A stretch of 64,000 nt of DNA from Nitrospirales bacterium. GTDB lineage: Bacteria > Nitrospirota > Nitrospiria > Nitrospirales > UBA8639. Below the pieces are notes generated by a model, which ran no database searches, was not told the DNA's origin, and saw nothing but the letters and a program-made list of their open reading frames with translations. Below are positions 13,750 to 26,978 of the stretch, piece after piece. The stretch spans positions 608,001 through 672,000 of the forward strand of contig CBDCWC010000002.1 in NCBI GenBank assembly GCA_965223295.1, given 5' to 3'. Both the position numbers and the translations under genes were made by a program. Position 1 is the first letter of the stretch. Each line of letters starts with the position of its first letter.

Positions 13750-14772
13750 ATGCCACGCAAGCCGACTCTCTCATCATTTTCTGAGTTTCGCGAAATGGCG
13801 TATGGCTTTCGGTTATCTCGGGTTATTTTTTCTGCTTTAGATCTGGACCTCTTTAATGTGATGGGACATCGTACCTGGTCGATTCCTACCTTAGCCAAAC
13901 AGTTGAAAGTGAGCACGCGTGGGCTCCATATTCTTTGCCGGAATTTAGCCAGTGCAGGCTTGTTGGTTCCCGCATTAGGACGATATCGAACCAGTAACAT
14001 GGTCAAGCAATACCTGCAAAAAGAAAGTCCCGACTATCGCGGAGATTACCTTGCCTTGATACAGCGGCAATGGACGGAGTGGTCTCGTCTTACCGAAGTG
14101 GTGACCACAGGTGTTCCCTTTGACCATGATGAACCAGAAACGGCTGCATATCGGAAGTCTTTTTCTTGGGCCATGCATCATCGGTCTCAAGAACCAGCGC
14201 AGGAGGTGGCCAGCCAAGTCTCTTTGAAGTCAGCACGTTCCATTCTCGATCTTGGTGGCGGACCTGGGACCTATGCGTTGGCGTTTCTTCAGGAGAATCC
14301 TCAGTTACAGGCAACAGTGATGGATCGGCCAGCTGCGCTGCAAGTCGCAAAAATTTTAGCGAAAGAACAATCGCTCACGTCTCGTCTTTCCCTACAACCT
14401 GGGAATTTCCTGGATGAGGAAATTTCTGGAAAATACGATGTTGTGTGGTACTCCAATGTGCTCCATATTTATTCTGCGTCTCAGAATCTCAAGATTTTTA
14501 GGAAAATCAAACGAGTGCTCAACCCTGGCGGACGACTCCTCATTCAAGATACCTTCTTGGAAGATCCGAGAGGGCTTCGGCCCTTAGAGGCTAATTTGTT
14601 TGCGGTGACGATGTTGCTCTATACAGAGAGCGGCAATACCTACCCCATACAAGATGTGCGCGCATGGCTTCACAAAGCTGGGTTGAATTGTACTCGTGTT
14701 CTTCGCCTGAGGCCAGGAACCGGAGATTGGGAAGGTCAAATACTTGAAGCGCGTAGGTCTCTATCTACTTAA
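13750..14772 (+). CDS. SAM-dependent O-methyltransferase (family 2, N-terminal dimerisation HTH)
   Basis: ALDLDLF winged-helix region, ILDLGGGPG, YDVVWYSNVLH and LNPGGRLLIQD motifs. Confidence 0.9.
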   Translation: MPRKPTLSSFSEFREMAYGFRLSRVIFSALDLDLFNVMGHRTWSIPTLAKQLKVSTRGLHILCRNLASAGLLVPALGRYRTSNMVKQYLQKESPDYRGDYLALIQRQWTEWSRLTEVVTTGVPFDHDEPETAAYRKSFSWAMHHRSQEPAQEVASQVSLKSARSILDLGGGPGTYALAFLQENPQLQATVMDRPAALQVAKILAKEQSLTSRLSLQPGNFLDEEISGKYDVVWYSNVLHIYSASQNLKIFRKIKRVLNPGGRLLIQDTFLEDPRGLRPLEANLFAVTMLLYTESGNTYPIQDVRAWLHKAGLNCTRVLRLRPGTGDWEGQILEARRSLST

Positions 14773-15120: not shown

Positions 15121-17304
15121 CTAGGATGTCTGCGGGGTTTGTGCCGTCCCTTCAGATGGTTTAATTGATGTAGGATCCTGAGAATACAGACTGGGCAAGT
15201 TGATAAAAAAGGTCGTACCCCGTCCCTGCAAACTTTGTACTTCAATCTTTCCCCCATGCTCTTGGATAATTTGGTGGGCAATGGCTAATCCTAGTCCAGT
15301 TCCTTCATGTTCTTCACTGAGATGTTTGGTCGTGAAAAATGGGTCAAAGATATGTTCAATATCTTCAGGAGCAATCCCTGAACCTGCGTCTTGAATTTCT
15401 ATTTGAACCCATTCTGGTTTTCCAGGGGAGGTGAGATGTCTAGTGCGGACGGTTAACACACCGCCAGCCGGCATCATGGCTTCCACGGCATTAAACAGAA
15501 AATTAAGAATGACTTGTTTCAGTTTTTGACGGTCAGCATAGACCTTCGGTAAACCTCGAATGAGATCGGTTTCAATCACAATGAGTTCATGGGAAGGGCG
15601 GACGCGTAGCGTATACAAGCACGATTCCAAAATCTCATTCAGATCTTCTTCTCGCAAGAACGGTTCAATTGGTTTGGCATAATCCAATATTTCTCGAGTT
15701 AGTCGTTCAATACGAAACACATCTTCCTTGACCACTTTGCTGAATCTAGCCAAAAACTGTTCATCGTCTTTTCGTTCCGGTGCCAAATCCACAAAGGCTT
15801 TAATTGAGGTTAAAGGATTGCGAATTTCATGGGCCAAGCCTCCTGCCATGGTCTCTAGTGAGCGCAATCGGTCAGTTCGGCGTACTAATGATTGAGATTG
15901 TTTGAGCTCTTCATACAAGAGAGCATTATCCAAGGCCACTGAAGCTTCTTGGGACAAGGTGGCTAGTAATTCTAAATCTTGGACTGAATAGCTCCCGTCG
16001 TCTGTTATTCGTGGGCCAAACACACAAAAGCCTAACAGGCGATTTTTGTTGACCAGAGGTAGACAGACCTCTGCTCCGATTTGCCCAAGTTTGGTCAGTA
16101 CCACTTGCGATTCTTCATCTGTGGCGAAGTCTTTCAAATCATTGACCAAAAAACTTGTTGTCCCTTGTTGCCAGGAGTCTTCCAATAATGAGCGGGATGC
16201 AAGGTGTACGTCAGAAAACTCGGTTAATAATTTTCCAAAACTTGATACGGGATGATAGTCCTGGCCGCTTTTCTTTCGTAAATATAAGGTACCCCATTGG
16301 AGTCCTAACGTTGGGCAGATCGATTGAACAATTGTGGCCGTCAAATCTTGAAGTTCTAAAATAGAGACCAGGGATTTCGAAAAATTCAACACGGTCTTAT
16401 ATTGATCATACCGCTCCTTAAATAGCGCTTTCGTAATGAGATTTTTTGCCTGCGTTTTCAATGAAGAGGCTCCAAACACCAGAAGCAACAACACGAAAAG
16501 TTCAAGTAAGGAATACCCAATATTGATGGATCCTAAATACCAATGTTGGCCGAGTAGTAAGACGGGATAGGCGGGAAATGCAATCAATACGACAAGTAGG
16601 CTGCCGGTGACACCGCGTTCCAATGCCGTACCAAGGTCAAGAAGGCGATAGCGGAGAAGGGTGAACGCAACCACAGAGATGTACACGGTTGCCAAAATTG
16701 CCCCGACAGGTTGTATGTTGATGCCATACCACAAGGGGAAGGTGGTGAGGCCACCACCGTACGCCACAATAGAACCACCAACTAAAAGATAATACCGTGA
16801 TCGTTCGGCGCCATGTTTTCTCTGAGCGGCTTGGAACAATAACCATGTCCCATAGAGAGAACAGAGCCCAAACCAGAGGAGATAGAAATGAAAGACAGGT
16901 CCGGGTTGTGGCCAGAACGAAAAACCTCCGGCAGGCTGAACGTTAACCACAAAATAGGGTGTTCCATTGGCAACCCATAAGAAGGTGGTGACGCCAGCGA
17001 TGACCCACAAAAATCGACGCTTATGGTGGATGTGTTCAAATTCCAGTAATGTGAAGACGTGCCAGACAAAAGTCCCGGGGAGGGCAATTGCCCCAATCAT
17101 GAGGAGGCGTACACATAATAACGCCGCATCATGGGATGAGGAAATTTGCCATGCTCCATAGCCAAACCCCCAGATTGCAGCTGCGAGCACATAGAAGGCA
17201 TAGGCTTGATGCTTAGGATGAGAAGGATTTTTGGCAAAAACGAGTAGGCCGGAAATGGTGGCGACTAGACCGGTCAGAAATCCACTTAAGGCATGCAGGG
17301 TCAC
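15121..17304 (-). CDS. Membrane sensor histidine kinase (N-terminal multi-TM/7TM-type sensor, GAF, HisKA, HATPase)
   Basis: About 8-9 hydrophobic segments, GAF (LPLVNKNRLLG...DLELLATL..EASVALDNA), H-box LAHEIRNPL, N-box NFLFNAVEAM, DAGSGI, FDPFFTTK and GTGLGLAI. Confidence 0.92.
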   Translation of the reverse strand: MTLHALSGFLTGLVATISGLLVFAKNPSHPKHQAYAFYVLAAAIWGFGYGAWQISSSHDAALLCVRLLMIGAIALPGTFVWHVFTLLEFEHIHHKRRFLWVIAGVTTFLWVANGTPYFVVNVQPAGGFSFWPQPGPVFHFYLLWFGLCSLYGTWLLFQAAQRKHGAERSRYYLLVGGSIVAYGGGLTTFPLWYGINIQPVGAILATVYISVVAFTLLRYRLLDLGTALERGVTGSLLVVLIAFPAYPVLLLGQHWYLGSINIGYSLLELFVLLLLVFGASSLKTQAKNLITKALFKERYDQYKTVLNFSKSLVSILELQDLTATIVQSICPTLGLQWGTLYLRKKSGQDYHPVSSFGKLLTEFSDVHLASRSLLEDSWQQGTTSFLVNDLKDFATDEESQVVLTKLGQIGAEVCLPLVNKNRLLGFCVFGPRITDDGSYSVQDLELLATLSQEASVALDNALLYEELKQSQSLVRRTDRLRSLETMAGGLAHEIRNPLTSIKAFVDLAPERKDDEQFLARFSKVVKEDVFRIERLTREILDYAKPIEPFLREEDLNEILESCLYTLRVRPSHELIVIETDLIRGLPKVYADRQKLKQVILNFLFNAVEAMMPAGGVLTVRTRHLTSPGKPEWVQIEIQDAGSGIAPEDIEHIFDPFFTTKHLSEEHEGTGLGLAIAHQIIQEHGGKIEVQSLQGRGTTFFINLPSLYSQDPTSIKPSEGTAQTPQTS

Positions 17305-17342
17305 GTAGAAGAAAATTCCCCGGGTGAGAAAAAGGCATCCCT

Positions 17343-17358
17343 AGCAACGGTTTTGCCA
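17343..17358 (-). promoter_or_regulatory. Sigma-54 (-24/-12) promoter of the histidine kinase gene
   Basis: Minus strand TGGCAAAACCGTTGCT is GG-N10-GC in TGGCA/TTGC consensus context, about 40 nt upstream of the GTG start. Confidence 0.7.
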
Positions 17359-17534
17359 CATGAAGGCTTATTGGACAATAAATATGCCTAGAAGTCAAAG
17401 CTTTGGGGTTCTTCCTCCCTTTCCCACATGGTCTCATTGAAGGCTCACGACAGCTGTTGCTGAACGAGTCTGTGGTTCATGGCTATTCTGAGAATCGTGT
17501 TCTTTCTGAGCTCATTGAGCGATTTCAACTCGTG

Positions 17535-17770
17535 GGTCTGCTGAAAAAACCCGCCAGCGGCGTTCCCTGACTTCGCCGGAGCGGCTTCGCGCAGGCAGGT
17601 CGCCATTTTTCCGTGCTCACATACTGCCAGTATGCTCCGCGCGCAAGAATGGCTGTGGCCTTTCCTTCGACAAGCTCAGGGCAGGACTGGACGGGCCGAC
17701 CCGACGTTCTTGATCGCCAAGAGCTTCCTGGCGAAACATGGCCTTTGCTATCTTCGTTATTCAACACTCC
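17535..17770. repeat. MITE/REP-like intergenic element with nested palindromic insertions (copy 1)
   Basis: Core aligns by eye to 61251-61374 (reverse complement) and 49281-49464. Imperfect terminal IRs. ACTCGTG is directly repeated at 17528-17534 and 17771-17777. Confidence 0.75.
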
Positions 17771-17782
17771 ACTCGTGCAAAG

Positions 17783-20128
17783 TCATGCCGCGCCTTTGAA
17801 ATCATTGGATGTGTTGCTGATTGGAGTTTTCGGTCCAGTAGTCTTTTGCAATGGACGCAATGAAAAATTTCCAGCAGCGATGGGCTTTTCTAAGATAATC
17901 ACATACGCTTGGTTGGCAAATGCAGGATACACCCCTGCATGCACGCATCCCAGCGAATCTAAAGCTTTTTCCCATTCTGTTTGATCGAAAAAACGAAATT
18001 GCCCTTCTTTTTCGGCTTGTCGAATTTTCCCGTAATTATTCAGGAGTTCCCGGGCTTCCGCTTTCTGAGCATGTTCCTTCGCCTGGTTGATTAGATTTTG
18101 GTAGATGCCGGAAAAGTCTCCATTGGGTTTCAGATTGGAAAGTACCATTCGGCCGCCGGGAGCAAGAACTCGATACAATTCTTGTAAAGATGAGTGAGGA
18201 TCAGCCACATACCCAAGAACCAAGTTTGAAACGATCCGATCAAATTGGTGATTATGAAATGGCAACGGCTGCTGCAAGTCTACCTGTGCCCATGCCATTT
18301 GAAAGGAGGGAAACTCCGGCGAACGTGTATTTTGCAGCCCGTGGTACGTGTGAGTCATGTGTGCTTGAGCTCGTCCAAGTGCTTCAGAGCTCGCATCGAT
18401 ACCAACATAGCGAATCGAATGCTCTGAAGTTAGAGAAGGAAAAGTGTGTTGATGTTTCAGAGATTCCAATAAAAACAGCCCCGCATTCCCATTGCCACAT
18501 CCGACATCTAACACATATTGCCCTGCAGTAATGGGCCCCAACGCCCGAAACACATGATCTAACAGTTGAACATAATCCTGACATTTTCCCACGGATTGAA
18601 AATGTCCAAGATAATCATCCCAAAAACCTTGGCCAACATCGGTGTGAGAATGTGCCTGTAATGCCATTTTTTCATGGCGATTTTGCCGACCAAGGGTTAG
18701 ACGATTAGGTTCATGAATCTCAGTTTGAGATGCGGCACATGCGACATGGTTTCGGCAATGATCAATAATGTGTCGATAGGTTCTGCGTGCCACTTTTGGA
18801 TTTTCTTGAATTCGATGTAACGCTTCAGGTATATCCAGCCATTCTGATACACGTGTGCCTGCGGCCTGCTTCACCATTTCAGCATCCTGGCGGTCAATCC
18901 AACAATCTTTCCCTGCTGAGATATAGAAGATTGGAGTCTGCAAGGCCCGCACATTGTCAATCGTGTGATTGAGTTTGGAGAAATTATTGGTTGCGGCATC
19001 GGTTAAAAAGTGTCCATTCACATTAAATCCCAAAATATTTGTGGAATAAGGAATGTGTCCCTGCCGATAGTTGGCAAAGAGGTCTTCTTGATGAACCGTG
19101 GCCACGGTTCGTTCAACATCGACGACTCCAACCAGCAGAACTAACAGTGCCAGTGAAGGTTCCTCTACTTCAGCTTTGATGGTGACCGGCCCAGCTAAAC
19201 TCGACGCCACTCCGATAACCTGGCTCTGAGGCCATTGCTGACGAACAAACCGTATTACCGACTGGAAATCCTGTTTCATTGAAGAAAGGGTAAAACCAAA
19301 GTGCTGCCCATCACTCTCTCCCACATGATTGGTGTGGTCATAACGCACAACATGAAACCCATTGCTGGCAAAATAATAGGCTAACGTAAGATAGTCACGC
19401 TTCGTTTCCCCATAGCCGGGAGCCATGACCACAACCGGCAATCTGGAAAGATCAGTTTCAATTGGATAATCATGATAGGCGATAATAGTGTGGCCTTTGG
19501 AATTTTCCAGCGCCACTCTGTTGCTCTTAATAGGTTGATTAGCTGGAGAAGCCTGATTGTTTGGATTGCAGAATGTCTGTGTTTTAGAAACTTGAAGAGG
19601 GTGGGATTCATGATTCTGGAGTTCGTTGTCACATGAAGGACCCGACTTAGGTTTCGTGACTTGGCTCATGACAAAACTGCCAGGCTCCAATGCGAACGAA
19701 TCAATTGGAGAATTATCCAATGTTCTGGGAGGTTTTTGTGAATGATGAAGCATCACACGAAGAAGGGTGCTCCCTTCCCATACCGTCGGCCCTCGATTGA
19801 TTGTGACGTGTTGAATCGTTCCCTGCTGCATTGAGGTCAATAGTGTGGACCTTGTTCCAAAACACTGAAAGGTCATTTCCTGCCCGACGTGTACGGGAGG
19901 CATTCCTTGTAGGTTCAATTCTAAAGCTCCTGTTGCCCCTAGTTGTATCTGACCTTCCCAATTTCCGCCGAGACAATGAAAAAATACTGGAACGGGAGCA
20001 CATCCGTTTAGTGCTGGTTGTCTCTTTTCTCTGAATAGTTCAGATCGTTCGGGAGCGAATTCTTGATTTCTTTTCGAGACGGATGTTGACGTGTCCAATA
20101 AAATTTCATTCATCATTCTTTCCCCCAT
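17783..20128 (-). CDS. LuxD-like acyl-ACP thioesterase/acyltransferase fused to a class I SAM-dependent methyltransferase
   Basis: Central domain follows the LuxD motif order (YFASNGFHVVRYDHTNHVGESDG, VASSLAG, LVGVVD, AGKDCW, LHRIQEN). C-terminal VLDVGCGNG, LPFHNHQFDRIVSN and RVLAPGGR. Start may be the ATG at 20116. Confidence 0.85.
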   Translation of the reverse strand: MGERMMNEILLDTSTSVSKRNQEFAPERSELFREKRQPALNGCAPVPVFFHCLGGNWEGQIQLGATGALELNLQGMPPVHVGQEMTFQCFGTRSTLLTSMQQGTIQHVTINRGPTVWEGSTLLRVMLHHSQKPPRTLDNSPIDSFALEPGSFVMSQVTKPKSGPSCDNELQNHESHPLQVSKTQTFCNPNNQASPANQPIKSNRVALENSKGHTIIAYHDYPIETDLSRLPVVVMAPGYGETKRDYLTLAYYFASNGFHVVRYDHTNHVGESDGQHFGFTLSSMKQDFQSVIRFVRQQWPQSQVIGVASSLAGPVTIKAEVEEPSLALLVLLVGVVDVERTVATVHQEDLFANYRQGHIPYSTNILGFNVNGHFLTDAATNNFSKLNHTIDNVRALQTPIFYISAGKDCWIDRQDAEMVKQAAGTRVSEWLDIPEALHRIQENPKVARRTYRHIIDHCRNHVACAASQTEIHEPNRLTLGRQNRHEKMALQAHSHTDVGQGFWDDYLGHFQSVGKCQDYVQLLDHVFRALGPITAGQYVLDVGCGNGNAGLFLLESLKHQHTFPSLTSEHSIRYVGIDASSEALGRAQAHMTHTYHGLQNTRSPEFPSFQMAWAQVDLQQPLPFHNHQFDRIVSNLVLGYVADPHSSLQELYRVLAPGGRMVLSNLKPNGDFSGIYQNLINQAKEHAQKAEARELLNNYGKIRQAEKEGQFRFFDQTEWEKALDSLGCVHAGVYPAFANQAYVIILEKPIAAGNFSLRPLQKTTGPKTPISNTSNDFKGAA

Positions 20129-20323
20129 TTAATTAAGTGTTTTTACTTACTTTTTTGGTCAAAGAATTCCCCGGGTTCACAAGAACCCCCACGAAGTTCA
20201 ACCGAATTTAGTGAACTGTTTTAAGAGCAAATCGGAGAAGGCTGGTCGGCAGGGAGAGGGTTGCTGAATCGCCTGAATGATTCAGGGCGCCTTCGGATTT
20301 TTTCTCTTATGACTTAGTACTAG

Positions 20324-20340
20324 AGCAACCTAAATGCCAA
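20324..20340 (-). promoter_or_regulatory. Sigma-54 (-24/-12) promoter of the LuxD-like/methyltransferase gene
   Basis: Minus strand TTGGCATTTAGGTTGCT is GG-N10-GC in consensus context, about 195 nt upstream of the ATG. Confidence 0.72.
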
Positions 20341-20435
20341 AGTTTTGGCAAAAAGAAATTCCTTGGAAATACTGGGAAATTTTTGCCGAAGAAAGCAGAA
20401 ACACGGCATTGAAACGTGAAAAGTTCATTATGAGC

Positions 20436-20451
20436 TGTCGAGCAACTGACA
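20436..20451. promoter_or_regulatory. Candidate upstream activator (enhancer) site TGT-N10-ACA
   Basis: TGTCGAGCAACTGACA dyad about 100 bp upstream of the sigma-54 site. Confidence 0.4.
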
Positions 20452-20567
20452 GGGCCAGAGCAATTGCGTAGAGATCCCTGACATGCAGGAATGACTTTTT
20501 TCATTGACTCCGCCCTATGGTCTACCTAGAATTCATTCACGATTGCCAACATCACGAGGAGGTTCGT

Positions 20568-22655
20568 ATGAAACACGGCACCATCCACAATGTTGTCCTG
20601 GCTTCCTATCCTGGAGCCGGAAAAACCAGCCTCACTGAAGCTCTCGCCTTTTCGGCCGGACTCATTCCCAGTATGGGCCATGTCTTACAGGGCACTACTC
20701 TTGCCGACTTTGAACCGGAAGAAGTACATCGTCATCATTCCTTGAGTTCTGCGCTGATTCAATTTGAATGGCAGGGGACAAGAATGAACGTCCTGGATAC
20801 TCCGGGTATGTCGGATTATGGAGTGGAGGTCCAGTCGTCGCTGAGGGCTGCGGATGGCGTGATTTTAGTGATCGGGGCTGGAACGGGGCTTCGTTCAGAA
20901 ATTGAACGGGTGTGGGACTTGATTCAAGAGCAGGAACTGCCTTGTTTGATTTTTATCAATGAATTAGATAAGGACGGGACCGATTTTACGGCGATCTTGG
21001 AGGAGTGCCAAAAAAGCTTAGAGCTGAAGGGGGTACCGCTGACGATTCCAGGAATGCAAGATGGACAACTGTCGGGAGTCATTGATCTCCTATCTCGCCA
21101 GTTCGTAACCTCTCATATACAGGGACCAAAATTTCAACGAAAGGATCTTTTGGCAGAACATGAAACGTTGACAACTGAGCATCGACGTCGGCTTACCGAA
21201 CTAGTGGCCGAGACGAATGATCAACTGGTGGAAAAGTACCTCACGGATGGAGAGCTGTCGGATGAAGATCTGATTGATGGCTTGACGTTGGGTACTCTGG
21301 AGCGAAAAATTGTTCCCGTTCTTTGTGGATCAGCAACCAGCAACGTGGGAATAGCGAGTCTTTTGGATGCCGTCATCCGTTTTCTGCCCTCGCCTGAAGA
21401 TCGCGCCAAGTTACATCCCTTGGCTGGTATTCAGCCACAAACTCAGGAAGCCTGTCAGCGACATCCCAACCCTCAAGAACCATTTTCGGGCCTCGCATTT
21501 AAAACTACGATTGATCCATTCATGGGTCGTCTCACCTATGTTCGAGTCTTGTCGGGAACACTCCAAGCCGATTCAGCTTTTTTCAATGCTTCACGGCAAG
21601 TCAAAGAAAAAGGTGGGCACCTCTTCTTTTCTATCGGGAAAAAACATCAACAAACCGATCACGCGGACGCGGGCGATATTGTGGCAATCGCTAAGCTTAA
21701 AGACACACAAACTGGCGATACGATTTGTGAAGAGAAACATCCCATTGCCTACCCCGGTCTTACGATTTTAAAACCTGTCATGTCTTATGCGTTAGAGGTT
21801 AAAAGTAACAAAGAAATCGACAAGGTGAGTTTAGGCTTACATAAGTTGGTGGAGGAAGATCCCTCTCTGGAATTTTTGAGAAATGATGAAACCAAGGAAA
21901 TGCTTCTGAGCGGGGTAGGGCAAGTCCATATCGATGCGACCTTAGAAAAGTTACGGCGGAAATATGGGGTAGACGTAAATTTACATATGCCAAAGGTGCC
22001 CTACAAAGAAACGATTCACCGTATGGCTCAAGCCCAAGGCAAGTACAAAAAACAAACAGGAGGACATGGGCAATTTGGCGATTGTTGGTTGCAGATTGAA
22101 CCGCTGTCCCGGGGAAAAGGCTTCGAATTTCACAACAAGATTGTGGGCGGCGCGATTCCGAGGAATTTTATCCCCGCCGTTGAAAAAGGCGTACAAGAAG
22201 CCATGCAACATGGCATTATTGCCGGCTTTCCGGTGATCGACGTGCAAGTCACTGTCTATGATGGCTCACATCATCCGGTTGACTCCTCAGAAATGGCCTT
22301 TAAAGTCGCTGCATCAATGGGCTTCAAGAAAGCTATGGAGTCAGCCCAAGCAGGCTTGCTTGAACCAATCATGGCTGTGGAAGTGACTGTTCCTGATGAT
22401 CTGGTAGGAACCGTCATTGGTGATCTCAACTCGCGTCGTGGGCGTATTCAGGGGATGGATGCCAAAGGCCATCATGAAATCGTCAAAGCTCATGTGCCCT
22501 TAGCGGAAATGCTCACCTATGCACCAACGCTCACATCACTGACTGGAGGAAAAGGCAGTTATCGAATGGAATTTTTTGGCTACGAAGACGTTCCCAAAGA
22601 ATTGGTCAATCGAGTCGTAGAAGAACAACAGAAGGAAGCGGTCGCGTCGACTTAG
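20568..22655 (+). CDS. Elongation factor G paralog (EF-G2/FusA2-like)
   Basis: GAGKTS, DTPG, EEDPSL, KKQTGGHGQFG, YDGSHHPVDSSEMAF and DLNSRRG motifs, with divergent G motifs. RBS GAGGAGG precedes the ATG at 20568. Confidence 0.9.
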   Translation: MKHGTIHNVVLASYPGAGKTSLTEALAFSAGLIPSMGHVLQGTTLADFEPEEVHRHHSLSSALIQFEWQGTRMNVLDTPGMSDYGVEVQSSLRAADGVILVIGAGTGLRSEIERVWDLIQEQELPCLIFINELDKDGTDFTAILEECQKSLELKGVPLTIPGMQDGQLSGVIDLLSRQFVTSHIQGPKFQRKDLLAEHETLTTEHRRRLTELVAETNDQLVEKYLTDGELSDEDLIDGLTLGTLERKIVPVLCGSATSNVGIASLLDAVIRFLPSPEDRAKLHPLAGIQPQTQEACQRHPNPQEPFSGLAFKTTIDPFMGRLTYVRVLSGTLQADSAFFNASRQVKEKGGHLFFSIGKKHQQTDHADAGDIVAIAKLKDTQTGDTICEEKHPIAYPGLTILKPVMSYALEVKSNKEIDKVSLGLHKLVEEDPSLEFLRNDETKEMLLSGVGQVHIDATLEKLRRKYGVDVNLHMPKVPYKETIHRMAQAQGKYKKQTGGHGQFGDCWLQIEPLSRGKGFEFHNKIVGGAIPRNFIPAVEKGVQEAMQHGIIAGFPVIDVQVTVYDGSHHPVDSSEMAFKVAASMGFKKAMESAQAGLLEPIMAVEVTVPDDLVGTVIGDLNSRRGRIQGMDAKGHHEIVKAHVPLAEMLTYAPTLTSLTGGKGSYRMEFFGYEDVPKELVNRVVEEQQKEAVAST

Positions 22656-22823: not shown

Positions 22824-23543
22824 TTATAACTTCTTTCTACGACGAAAGAGTTCCAGACATACTAAGCCAGATATGAAAAGGCCTAACGTACTTGGCTCAG
22901 GAACGGGAGTCGAGGACTCTTTGGTTAATCGCACATTGTCGAGAATCAAGCCAATGTTGTCTCCACCATTGTCTCCACCTGAGGCATGAGCAAAGAACAA
23001 TGTTCCTGTGGTTGAGGCATCGGAAGAAACCATGCGTGTGACTGTCTGAAAAGGATCGTCAAAATCCCGCACGAACGTTTCTTGGTAAAGAGAACCAAGC
23101 ACCACGGTAACAGCGTTGTCACCCTCGTTTTGATTCGGGAACTCACTGCATATAGGAGAAGTGGTGGCGCAGGGGCCTGCCAAATCAAAGGTGAGAATGA
23201 TTTGGTCATTCGGATTAAATGAAAAGGTGTTCTTCGATTCAAGCCTTCCCGCATGGCTTGTCGACCCATCTAGGTCGAGATAGAGGCCGTTGCCTGGGTA
23301 AAAATCCACGAATCCATTACCTAAGAGATCGACACTGCCATTTGTTACGTTCCAGTTGGTGAAAGTAGAGAAGTTCGTTTGTCCCATACCGCCGTTCTCA
23401 TTATCAAAATTATCCTCTAGAAGAGTCATGGTAGCTGCGAATGCCACCTGAGAAATGCAAAGGAGAAAACCGGCAATACAGACCATGAGACCAATTAAAG
23501 TCTTGCGTTTGCTTCTTAATGCCGTAGGATGAATCATAAACAT
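22824..23543 (-). CDS. PEP-CTERM sorting-domain surface protein
   Basis: Signal peptide, Asn/Gly/Thr-rich beta domain and C-terminal PVPEPSTLGLFISGLVCLELFRRRKKL. Confidence 0.9.
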   Translation of the reverse strand: MFMIHPTALRSKRKTLIGLMVCIAGFLLCISQVAFAATMTLLEDNFDNENGGMGQTNFSTFTNWNVTNGSVDLLGNGFVDFYPGNGLYLDLDGSTSHAGRLESKNTFSFNPNDQIILTFDLAGPCATTSPICSEFPNQNEGDNAVTVVLGSLYQETFVRDFDDPFQTVTRMVSSDASTTGTLFFAHASGGDNGGDNIGLILDNVRLTKESSTPVPEPSTLGLFISGLVCLELFRRRKKL

Positions 23544-25741: not shown

Positions 25742-26338
25742 TCAAATAGACGAGAAGCTTATTTTTGGCTCTGTCCCCTTTAAGAGTCGAACGATATTAT
25801 CTTTGTGACAGTACACAATTAATGCTAACACTGCTAACGCAAAAAGGAAAAGGAAGAAGTTTCTTTCGTAAAACCATGCGAGAAACGGAAATGCCGTAAA
25901 TGCAGCTAGCGCGCCACCTGACGAATATTTGAACAATACGACAGCAGTTAGCCAAACTCCCAGTAAGCATAGACCCAAAAATAAGCTCATGCCACAGACT
26001 GCACCTAAGGCCGTCGCCACGCCCTTGCCACCTTTAAATTTGAGGAATACCGAAAAAATATGTCCAAGAATAACTGCAAGACCTATAAGAAGCACCCAGC
26101 CATGTGGAGTTTCTAGGTATAAAGCCAGACCTGTTGCTAATGCCCCTTTCCCGATATCTCCAAGCAGAGTCAGTATGCCGGCTTTTTTGCCTGAGACTCG
26201 CAAGACATTGGTAAATCCAATATTTTTACTGCCTTGAGTGCGGGGATCCGTCTCTCCTAATGCTTGGCTGACAATCAACCCAAACGGAATTGATCCTAAA
26301 AGATACGCTCCTAGGGCAGCCAGGACATACATAAACAT
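25742..26338 (-). CDS. plsY: Glycerol-3-phosphate acyltransferase
   Basis: YLLGSIPFG, GSKNIGFTNVLR, GGKGVAT and HKDNIVRL motifs. Confidence 0.95.
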   Translation of the reverse strand: MFMYVLAALGAYLLGSIPFGLIVSQALGETDPRTQGSKNIGFTNVLRVSGKKAGILTLLGDIGKGALATGLALYLETPHGWVLLIGLAVILGHIFSVFLKFKGGKGVATALGAVCGMSLFLGLCLLGVWLTAVVLFKYSSGGALAAFTAFPFLAWFYERNFFLFLFALAVLALIVYCHKDNIVRLLKGTEPKISFSSI

Positions 26339-26360
26339 TCATGCTTATCTTTAGAAGGAG

Positions 26361-26978
26361 CTACCAATATTGTGGGCTGAGTTTTTTAAAGATAAGGACG
26401 AGGTAATGCCAGCCTGAAGCTAGTGAGAGGACTAACGCCACATAGAGTAGAACGAGACCTACAGAGGACAACGCACCTTGAAATTCTGGCCAAGCCGTGT
26501 GGAAAATAAGACAAAGAATCCCTCCAATTTGACCAACAACTTTAAATTTCCCCAATGAGTCAGCCGGCACGATAAAGCCTTCTTTTGCTGCCACTGCTCT
26601 CGCTCCGGTGACCACCAACTCTCTGGCAATCATGACGAGCGCAAGCCAGACTGCCACCTGTTGAGATTGCACGAGAAGAATAAGGCCTGAAGCCACCAGG
26701 AGTTTATCGGCTACAGGATCCAACAATTTCCCTAAGTTCGTGATTTGCCCGCTTCGTCGAGCTAGATATCCATCTAGGAAATCCGTGAAAGCCGCAGCAG
26801 AAAAAACCAACCCAGCCCATAAAGCTCTCTCCGGGGTCGGCTCTAAATAGAGCCAAACAAACACAGGAATTAAGAGAATCCTCAGAAGAGTAATGGAGTT
26901 AGGAAGATTCAAACTTGCCTCTCTACTTTCTAGATTGGCATGTGGCGCTTTAGATTTTAGGATATCTGAAGAGTTCAT
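26361..26978 (-). CDS. pgsA: CDP-diacylglycerol--glycerol-3-phosphate 3-phosphatidyltransferase
   Basis: NLPNSITLLRI and TDFLDGYLARR..QITNLGKLLDPVADK motifs. Confidence 0.93.
   Translation of the reverse strand: MNSSDILKSKAPHANLESREASLNLPNSITLLRILLIPVFVWLYLEPTPERALWAGLVFSAAAFTDFLDGYLARRSGQITNLGKLLDPVADKLLVASGLILLVQSQQVAVWLALVMIARELVVTGARAVAAKEGFIVPADSLGKFKVVGQIGGILCLIFHTAWPEFQGALSSVGLVLLYVALVLSLASGWHYLVLIFKKLSPQYW

Follow-up and report, generated by a model that had tools for sequence, protein, structure and literature searches.

We analysed a 64,000-nucleotide stretch of the genome of a Nitrospirales bacterium (hereafter the window; assembly GCA_965223295.1, contig CBDCWC010000002.1, positions 608,001 to 672,000), in which two consecutive minus-strand genes code for a multidomain enzyme with LuxD-like and methyltransferase domains and for a membrane sensor histidine kinase (Table 1). 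The list of open reading frames (ORFs) and their translation give 781 amino acids (aa) for the enzyme, counted from its first ATG, and 727 aa for the kinase; 478 nt separate the two genes. An earlier note on this DNA, made from the sequence alone, had proposed that the enzyme makes a lipid signal which is read by the kinase. We found that the enzyme and the kinase are one conserved functional module, with a near-obligate pairing across lineages, and that the enzyme consists of three domains, two of them catalytic.

The central domain of the enzyme belongs to the LuxD family of acyl-thioester hydrolases. The Pfam model Acyl_transf_2/LuxD (PF02273) matched residues 212–455 (nt ~18764–19495) with 86.1 bits against a cut-off of 20.3, compared with 55 bits for the competing model Hydrolase_4, and this was the sole PF02273 match in the genome. 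The motif order of LuxD, which had been noticed at about 18800–19530, indeed holds in the translation (SNGFHVVRYDHTNHVGESDG, GVASSLAG, LLVGVVDV, SAGKDCWI and EALHRIQENP). The LuxD structure 1THT was the sole strong PDB sequence match in a phmmer search (E 4.9e-17). It was also the best PDB fold found by Foldseek (E 1.7e-17, TM 0.84), when the AlphaFold (AF2) model of the enzyme was used (mean predicted local distance difference test score (pLDDT) 76, domains mostly 80–96); monoglyceride lipases and feruloyl esterases followed at ~1e-12. By both family model and fold, the hydrolase thus groups with LuxD and not with generic esterases. Ser310, Asp408 and His438 align with 1THT chain positions 114, 211 and 241, which we take to be the LuxD catalytic triad, and are invariant in 48 aligned full-length homologues, so the triad that the note had called apparently intact is so. 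As in LuxD, the nucleophile elbow begins with Ala, not Gly (A-S-S-L-A here, A-A-S-L-S in LuxD).

The likeness to LuxD, which is the myristoyl-ACP thioesterase/transferase of the lux fatty acid reductase system, with the family model above its cut-off, the best structural match and a triad aligned position by position, has its limits: identity over the structural alignment is only ~19%, and, unlike LuxD, the hydrolase shares a polypeptide with a methyltransferase and a PilZ-like domain, and its gene is paired with a kinase gene. That the enzyme is LuxD proper could be ruled out, since it scored 89.5 bits against the cut-off of 420 of the LuxD equivalog NF052253 (NCBIfam) and the genome has no lux genes; PRK13604 was likewise not reached (85.3 versus 529). 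The lack of lux partners, first seen in the window, extends to the whole 100%-complete genome for LuxE (PF04443, no match). The one LuxC (PF05893) match is marginal, at 22.4 bits to a 999-aa ORF of a different contig, C3, and comes from a model that also matches in non-luminous control genomes; luciferase (PF00296) was not searched.

The hydrolase is followed by a class I S-adenosylmethionine (SAM)-dependent methyltransferase, as the note had it. Five Pfam models (Methyltransf_31/23/11/12/25) match residues 524–728, and D541, G543 and G545 of the glycine-rich, SAM-binding motif I (LDxGCGxG) are invariant. The Foldseek matches of this domain were generic (CouO, the CurJ C-methyltransferase, RebM and Coq5) and mixed C- and O-methyltransferases, and a search of the ESM Atlas with the methyltransferase part returned generic methyltransferase clusters only.

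While the hydrolase and methyltransferase domains stood up to this analysis, the two-domain picture of the enzyme did not, for a third, N-terminal domain (residues ~45–130) had been overlooked. It was modelled by AF2 as a beta-barrel, with pLDDT 80–92 across it. BcsA PilZ domains headed the VIA-align matches (Z 6.9; 97 aligned residues at a root-mean-square deviation of 4.3 in one case, 95 in another), and at least seven further entries among the 50 listed were PilZ proteins (VCA0042, PP4397, PA0012, YcgR, MotI and PlzA among them; Z 5–6.5); since all Z values were below 8, this search was not decisive alone. Comparison by hhalign with the equivalent region of PilZ-positive orthologues gave a probability of 71.7% (E 3.5e-5). 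No Pfam model, including PilZ (PF07238), matched residues 1–210 of the window protein even at E≤5, and Foldseek found nothing below 1e-3 for the N-terminal model. Pfam PilZ was found at the equivalent position of three orthologues (loci L039, L040 and L045; ~1e-7 to 1e-8), and more distant Nitrospirota orthologues have REC-PAS-PilZ-PilZ in place of the barrel; START-like domains take this position in some relatives.

The cyclic di-GMP (c-di-GMP) binding motifs of PilZ domains, given as RxxxR and (D/N)xSxxG in the literature, are kept in L039 (RRRWTR and NLSRGG). Both are absent from the window protein and from all 45 aligned database homologues (those named being Nitrospirota, Nitrospirales or Nitrospira), where the clade-specific CLGGxWEG and G[MF]PP[VI] replace them. 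The barrel, thus, is probably a PilZ-derived regulatory domain which in the window protein has lost canonical c-di-GMP binding. A small beta-barrel fused to a catalytic domain recalls BcsA-type PilZ effector enzymes, the BcsA PilZ being the best fold match; many members of the enzyme family have a bona fide Pfam PilZ domain, whereas the clade of the window lacks both binding motifs. Two PilZ surveys contain neither "hydrolase" nor "esterase" as a term, and use "methyltransferase" for CheR only.

The next co-oriented gene had been described as a multi-pass membrane kinase with a GAF domain, and Pfam agrees, with HisKA_7TM at 59.9, GAF_2 at 38.8, HisKA at 44.3 and HATPase_c at 97.6 bits. The translation contains the H-box HEIRNPL as well as N, G1 and G2 boxes, and the context of the GTG start is conserved. 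The best architecture-level NCBIfam match spanning GAF and kinase core was PrsK (TIGR02916), at 152.7 bits against a cut-off of 300. The PrsK/PrsR pair of PEP-CTERM/exosortase systems resembles the kinase in that a multi-pass membrane GAF and HisKA kinase is matched to sigma-54 regulators; the score is below the cut-off, however, and no exosortase genes are adjacent. The genome codes for two more full-length seven-transmembrane (7TM)-GAF kinase paralogues (C2:906716-908833, 34% identity; C2:1308081-1310150, 22%), the latter of which sits between two sigma-54 activator genes and looks PrsK/PrsR-type; a comparable second paralogue is present in most genomes of the window's family. In L040–L044, which come from one Nitrospirota genus, the kinase is ~1009 aa long and has two tandem HisKA_7TM-like regions before the GAF domain and kinase core.

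The enzyme is present in 48 of 301 sampled Nitrospirota genomes. We fetched 21 Nitrospirota loci with ~9 kb on each side, and every one has a same-strand kinase homologue after the enzyme, including 15 that have no other tested window gene in common; in distant lineages (for example L037, L039 and L045) the two ORFs overlap or abut. We further scanned 80 metagenome loci with distant, core-only members (33–61% identity to the query P0177; some are near-duplicates and the counts are not all independent), using a small alignment; a 28-sequence alignment had no sufficiently conserved stretch. Among the 70 loci with at least 600 nt downstream, 64 have, 3–261 nt after the enzyme, a full-length kinase homologue whose alignment begins at about residue 1 and takes in the 7TM and GAF regions as well as the catalytic part, four have the kinase 2–3.5 kb downstream and two have none, so that 68 of 70 are paired. 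In two of the four loci with a distant kinase, L053 and L067, which are fully annotated, biosynthetic genes lie between enzyme and kinase.

Presence and absence point the same way. Of 41 genomes of the window's family, which are related and not independent, 24 have both genes, 15 have neither and two have a kinase match only; one of these matches resembles a paralogue, at 37% identity, and in the second case the gene is partial and the assembly fragmented. The two genes can be seen to adjoin in 21 of the 24, and in the remaining three contig ends cut the locus. The linkage of enzyme and kinase across genomes is thus well established amid otherwise different flanking genes; it exceeds the shared ancestry of the neighbourhoods, and the kinase is therefore the real partner of the enzyme.

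The core of the enzyme defines a broad family, with 1753 representatives at E≤1e-3 and at least 179 clusters (50% identity) at E≤1e-30. Those members whose source is named belong to Nitrospirota, Omnitrophota and candidate division WOR-1. Representatives are 163–1488 aa long among the 150 listed, the shortest being fragments, and full core-only forms measure ~549–587 aa. Among 29 representatives that were scanned for domains, PilZ occurs in 16, in some together with REC and PAS, and a START/SRPBCC lipid-binding domain in one; six consist of the core only. In source databases members are called "methyltransferase domain-containing", "alpha/beta hydrolase", "serine aminopeptidase domain-containing", COG-type methyltransferase/lysophospholipase or "hypothetical protein".

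The strongest evidence on the substrate comes from the genomic context of these relatives. In six loci (L053, L055, L067, L058, L078 and L054), a core-only gene lies inside an operon with an acyl carrier protein (ACP), two ketosynthases, a ketoreductase of the short-chain dehydrogenase/reductase family and a FabA-like dehydratase. The same operons encode a nitroreductase-family protein and one or two CrtI/amine-oxidase-like flavin-dependent (FAD) oxidoreductases; genes for a PlsC acyltransferase and for an SRPBCC protein are present in some. The enzyme gene is mid-operon; the 7TM-GAF kinase and a single receiver stand at the end. Of the 80 metagenome loci, 11 have a ketosynthase, ACP or FabA gene no more than 6 kb away, and 27 have a START/SRPBCC domain, either fused or adjacent. 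The ACP/ketosynthase operons therefore tie the family to ACP-bound acyl chains. Five of these operons (L053:3178-13423, L067:1404-13342, L055, L058 and L078) are apparently of an uncharacterised type II fatty-acid/polyketide-like kind.

Upstream of the enzyme gene, a sigma-54 type -24/-12 element, which the note had missed, is one of only two matches to TGGCA-N6-TTGCW on both strands of the window (0.53 expected); the 3.78-Mb genome has 32 such matches. A matching site 209–237 nt upstream of the enzyme gene is invariant in five relatives from the same family (the one named record is Nitrospirota; the four handled genomes among them represent two genera), and it is the sole match in each locus of 18–20 kb. 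Upstream of the enzyme outside the window's family the strict pattern was not found; looser, differently placed forms occur in L038, L039 and L048. The element is preceded by an activator-type palindrome (TGT-N10-ACA), with a further half-site, TGTCAGGG, ~30 nt beyond. The core of the palindrome, TGTCA...CGAC, is invariant, and the full CTGTCA...CGACAGC is found in five of the six aligned loci. Only the enzyme's site, among the 32 sigma-54-like sites of the genome, has such a palindrome within 250 nt.

The conserved structure that RNAalifold predicts for the 5' leader has 29 pairs, eight of them with compensatory changes, in six loci; no Rfam family matched in 17200–20600. By this model the leader may be regulatory. 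Because the first ATG overlaps the ribosome-binding site, we prefer as the start of the enzyme the conserved ATGATG at 20116/20113, which probably gives a protein of 777 or 776 aa; the six aligned loci conserve ATGATGAATGAA there and a GGAG-like site upstream. Between enzyme and kinase, an 80-aa ORF (17525–17767) has no Pfam match and a terminator scan gave nothing above chance. The near-invariant element upstream of the kinase may be the kinase's own promoter or an operator.

Table 1. Features of the enzyme–kinase module in the window, in window coordinates.
Feature	Position	Strand	Basis
Sensor histidine kinase gene, GTG start (7TM, residues 10–224; GAF, 317–460; HisKA, 483–544; HATPase_c, 591–704)	15121..17304	-	Pfam
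Intergenic gap between enzyme and kinase	17305..17782	-	Alignment of 5 loci, pattern search
Second sigma-54-like site, upstream of kinase	17343–17358	-	Pattern search, window-specific
Conserved element TTTGACTTCT...TATTTATTGTCCAATA, ~80–120 nt upstream of kinase start	17385–17425	-	Near-invariant in 5 loci
Three-domain enzyme gene	17783..20128	-	ORF list, translation; database copy 776 aa, 100% identical
Class I SAM-dependent methyltransferase with helical N-terminal cap, residues ~475–750	17879..18706	-	Pfam, Foldseek
LuxD-family alpha/beta-hydrolase (acyl-thioester hydrolase/acyltransferase) domain, residues ~200–465	18734..19531	-	PF02273, 1THT, Foldseek
Putative N-terminal PilZ-like beta-barrel, residues ~45–130	19739..19996	-	AF2, VIA-align, hhalign
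5' leader of ~200 nt, predicted conserved 17-bp long-range helix and two hairpins	20117..20312	-	RNAalifold, 6 loci
Sigma-54 type -24/-12 element TGGCATTTAGGTTGCT, ~190–200 nt upstream of enzyme start codon	20324..20339	-	Pattern search
Activator-type palindrome TGTCAGTTGCTCGACA (TGT-N10-ACA), 112 nt upstream of -24/-12	20436..20451	-	Unique in window

Around the module, a gene of the EF-G family (20517–22655, plus strand; NF009381, 851 bits) is divergent from the enzyme gene, and a Methyltransf_2-type O-methyltransferase with a dimerisation domain (13750–14772, plus strand) is convergent with the kinase gene. Both keep their places in the six relatives that share the window neighbourhood (L001, L033–L036 and L038), and the O-methyltransferase is not kept there in the other loci. 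Beyond lie the gene for a PEP-CTERM protein of 239 aa, which weakly matches choice-of-anchor C (22824–23543, minus strand), and, ~6 kb from the module, two phospholipid synthesis genes for PlsY (glycerol-3-phosphate acyltransferase) and a CDP-alcohol phosphatidyltransferase (25742–26978, minus strand), a pair also present in L001, L036 and L038.

Relatives of the module offer hints at its regulatory wiring. In five annotated Nitrospirota loci (L037, L039, L047, L048 and L052), the kinase is followed by genes for an NtrC-type sigma-54 activator and a REC-HD-GYP protein, the latter giving a c-di-GMP context that the note had missed; L049, L050 and L051 have ORFs of matching size there, not annotated. 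The enzymes of L037, L047, L048 and L052, and those of several representatives, carry a fused REC-PAS-PilZ-PilZ part, and several Nitrospirota relatives have a kinase without the 7TM part while their enzyme carries REC-PAS-PilZ. Stand-alone receiver genes were found by tblastn beside the kinase in 23 of the 80 metagenome loci. The genome of the window has 22 sigma-54 activators, 11 of them with receiver domains. Its REC-HD-GYP orthologue (51% identity; C2:570511-571494, or L133:8506-9507, minus strand) lies ~55 kb away beside a PAS hybrid histidine kinase, and we did not count it as part of the module, since it sits by this different kinase.

We hold with moderate confidence that the locus is a regulated lipid-tailoring module, in which an acyl chain is released from a thioester and methylated under the control of a dedicated kinase. 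In this scheme the LuxD-type Ser-Asp-His domain would accept an acyl chain that is bound to a carrier as a thioester, most probably as acyl-ACP, and the fused methyltransferase would methylate the released chain, the simplest putative product being a fatty acid methyl ester. If acyl-ACP is the substrate, the window enzyme would, like LuxD, be supplied from the general pool of acyl-ACP. The N-terminal barrel may serve, as a PilZ relic, as a regulatory handle. The enzyme gene would be transcribed from the sigma-54 promoter with its enhancer-type upstream site, and its expression would, therefore, depend on an NtrC-type activator. The 7TM-GAF kinase would be the dedicated sensor of the module and feed such receiver proteins. 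As to the direction in which information flows, our preferred reading is a feedback loop: the kinase pathway would control synthesis, and it may, in addition, be responsive to the lipid that is made. Three of the four outcomes that the earlier note had named as able to overturn its idea were looked into, and none of them overturned it.

Several observations weigh against this scheme. An acyl-ACP substrate of the window enzyme would be transferred from relatives that are ~30–35% identical to it; ACP or ketosynthase genes occur in none of the 21 Nitrospirota loci, and homologues of the oxidoreductases of the ACP operons were not found in the window's genome. The methyltransferase reached no functional equivalog cut-off in NCBIfam: the fatty-acid O-methyltransferase Mtf2 (NF045825) gave 20.5 bits against 400, and scores were about equal for UbiE, ArsM, BioC and Mtf2. 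Since, in addition, its fold matches include the C-methyltransferases CurJ and CouO, O-methylation of a carboxylate is only a guess. For the window protein, the assignment to PilZ is based on a Z of 6.9 together with an hhalign probability of 72%, and the binding motifs are missing. In the window, neither an NtrC-type activator nor a REC-HD-GYP gene adjoins the module, and no response regulator is adjacent. In a maximum-likelihood tree of the 11 receiver-bearing activators of the genome and seven module-linked regulators, the latter form a clade (100/100); because this clade holds no member from the window's genome, the cognate activator could not be named. A second sigma-54-like site, upstream of the kinase, is not conserved in four relatives, and was given little weight because of this lack of conservation.

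The enzyme might instead be purely an output, whose kinase senses an unrelated cue, such as the state of the membrane or a small molecule bound by GAF; receivers, c-di-GMP and sigma-54 would then switch on lipid remodelling, for example in adaptation of the envelope or biofilm. We regard this as possible, if tentative. It would account for the REC-PAS-PilZ-PilZ fusions, for the receivers that stand alone beside the kinase in 23 of 80 loci, for the REC-HD-GYP and NtrC-type genes of five annotated Nitrospirota clusters and for the conserved sigma-54 promoter with its activator site. However, a tight one-to-one pairing with a single kinase family, even within biosynthetic operons, is more typical of product-linked sensing, and the clade of the window has lost the c-di-GMP motifs and has an enzyme without a receiver domain.

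The opposite direction of flow was that of the earlier note, in which enzyme and kinase are synthase and receptor. In Ralstonia, the methyltransferase PhcB is reported to make methyl 3-hydroxymyristate, which is sensed by the kinase PhcS (PMC8578825, PMC7694676). By analogy with Phc, the enzyme would make a diffusible fatty acid methyl ester, the adjacent kinase would be its receptor, and an NtrC-type regulator would boost the sigma-54 promoter in a positive feedback, so that the whole would resemble quorum sensing. The conserved order of synthase then kinase parallels PhcB/PhcS, the ACP-type operons end with the kinase and a single receiver gene, a membrane 7TM and GAF sensor would suit a lipophilic ligand, and a sigma-54 promoter on the synthase gene permits feedback. 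We nevertheless find this reading, while plausible, doubtful. The combination, in Nitrospirota relatives, of a kinase that lacks the 7TM part with an enzyme that carries REC-PAS-PilZ suggests that the enzyme is a target of the kinase, and that its product is not what the kinase reads. The lipid side of the proposal, a substrate on acyl-ACP, gained independent support from the ACP/ketosynthase operons and START-like fusions; the signalling side did not fare as well, as the REC-bearing relatives and the sigma-54 promoter fit control of the enzyme by the kinase equally well.

The resemblance to the Phc system (phcBSRQ, with the regulators PhcR and PhcQ) is one of gene order only, in that a SAM methyltransferase gene immediately precedes a sensor kinase gene, with receivers in some relatives; a lipid methyl ester would, by this analogy, be a plausible product here as well. 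In abstracts on the Phc system PhcB is not described as fused to a thioesterase or PilZ domain, and the kinase of the window differs in being of the 7TM-GAF type, with linked regulators in relatives that are of the NtrC/sigma-54 and REC-HD-GYP types. The most far-reaching form of the proposal is a self-contained lipid autoinducer system across Nitrospirota, Omnitrophota, WOR-1 and metagenome lineages, in which a didomain synthase would tap acyl-ACP to make a methylated lipid signal, the 7TM-GAF kinase would read it, and c-di-GMP and sigma-54 feedback would be layered on top, distinct from the acyl-homoserine lactone (AHL), diffusible signal factor (DSF) and Phc systems. This we consider unlikely.

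A biotin-like route is improbable. As with BioC and BioH, which also combine a class I methyltransferase and an alpha/beta hydrolase acting on ACP-bound chains, the methyltransferase would cap the carboxyl of a malonyl- or dicarboxyl-ACP for extension, and the hydrolase would later remove the ester or free the chain, giving an omega-functionalised acyl chain instead of ending in a methyl ester. BioC (TIGR02072) weakly matched the methyltransferase, with 36 bits where the cut-off is 184.95, one source labels member P0213 a methylase and pimeloyl-ACP methyl ester esterase, the ACP/ketosynthase/ketoreductase/dehydratase operons contain what primer masking needs, and the genome has BioB and no BioC above the cut-off (best 60.7 versus 184.95 bits). 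The hydrolase, however, is nearest to the thioesterase LuxD and not to known pimeloyl-ACP methyl esterases, and the methyltransferase resembles UbiE and ArsM as much as it does BioC. BioC and BioH are, moreover, separate housekeeping proteins, whose cut-offs neither domain here reaches, and the control by kinase, PilZ and sigma-54, foreign to biotin synthesis, and the patchy distribution (48 of 301 Nitrospirota genomes) misfit a housekeeping cofactor route. Last, that a generic esterase–methyltransferase fusion merely lies beside a kinase, as the 478-nt gap and the apparently separate promoter elements in the window might suggest, is extremely improbable, since chance adjacency is excluded by the synteny counts (21 of 21 and 68 of 70, amid different neighbours), besides the overlap of the genes in distant lineages and the matching presence and absence within the family.

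In full-text searches, subscription journals and supplements aside, neither a LuxD-type/methyltransferase fusion nor the pairing of one with a HisKA_7TM kinase turned up as described, and the module looks undescribed in the literature searched. It is a conserved, widespread and uncharacterised module, in which a predicted lipid-tailoring enzyme is paired with one sensor kinase family, and its conserved sigma-54 promoter provides a ready reporter. Should the enzyme prove to be an output, it would represent a novel type of catalytic effector under the control of PilZ and receiver domains. If its product is a signal, lipid methyl ester signalling, between cells or within them, would be added for marine nitrite oxidisers and for candidate phyla whose regulation is barely known; and, were the autoinducer reading true, nitrite-oxidising Nitrospirales would have a new chemical language.

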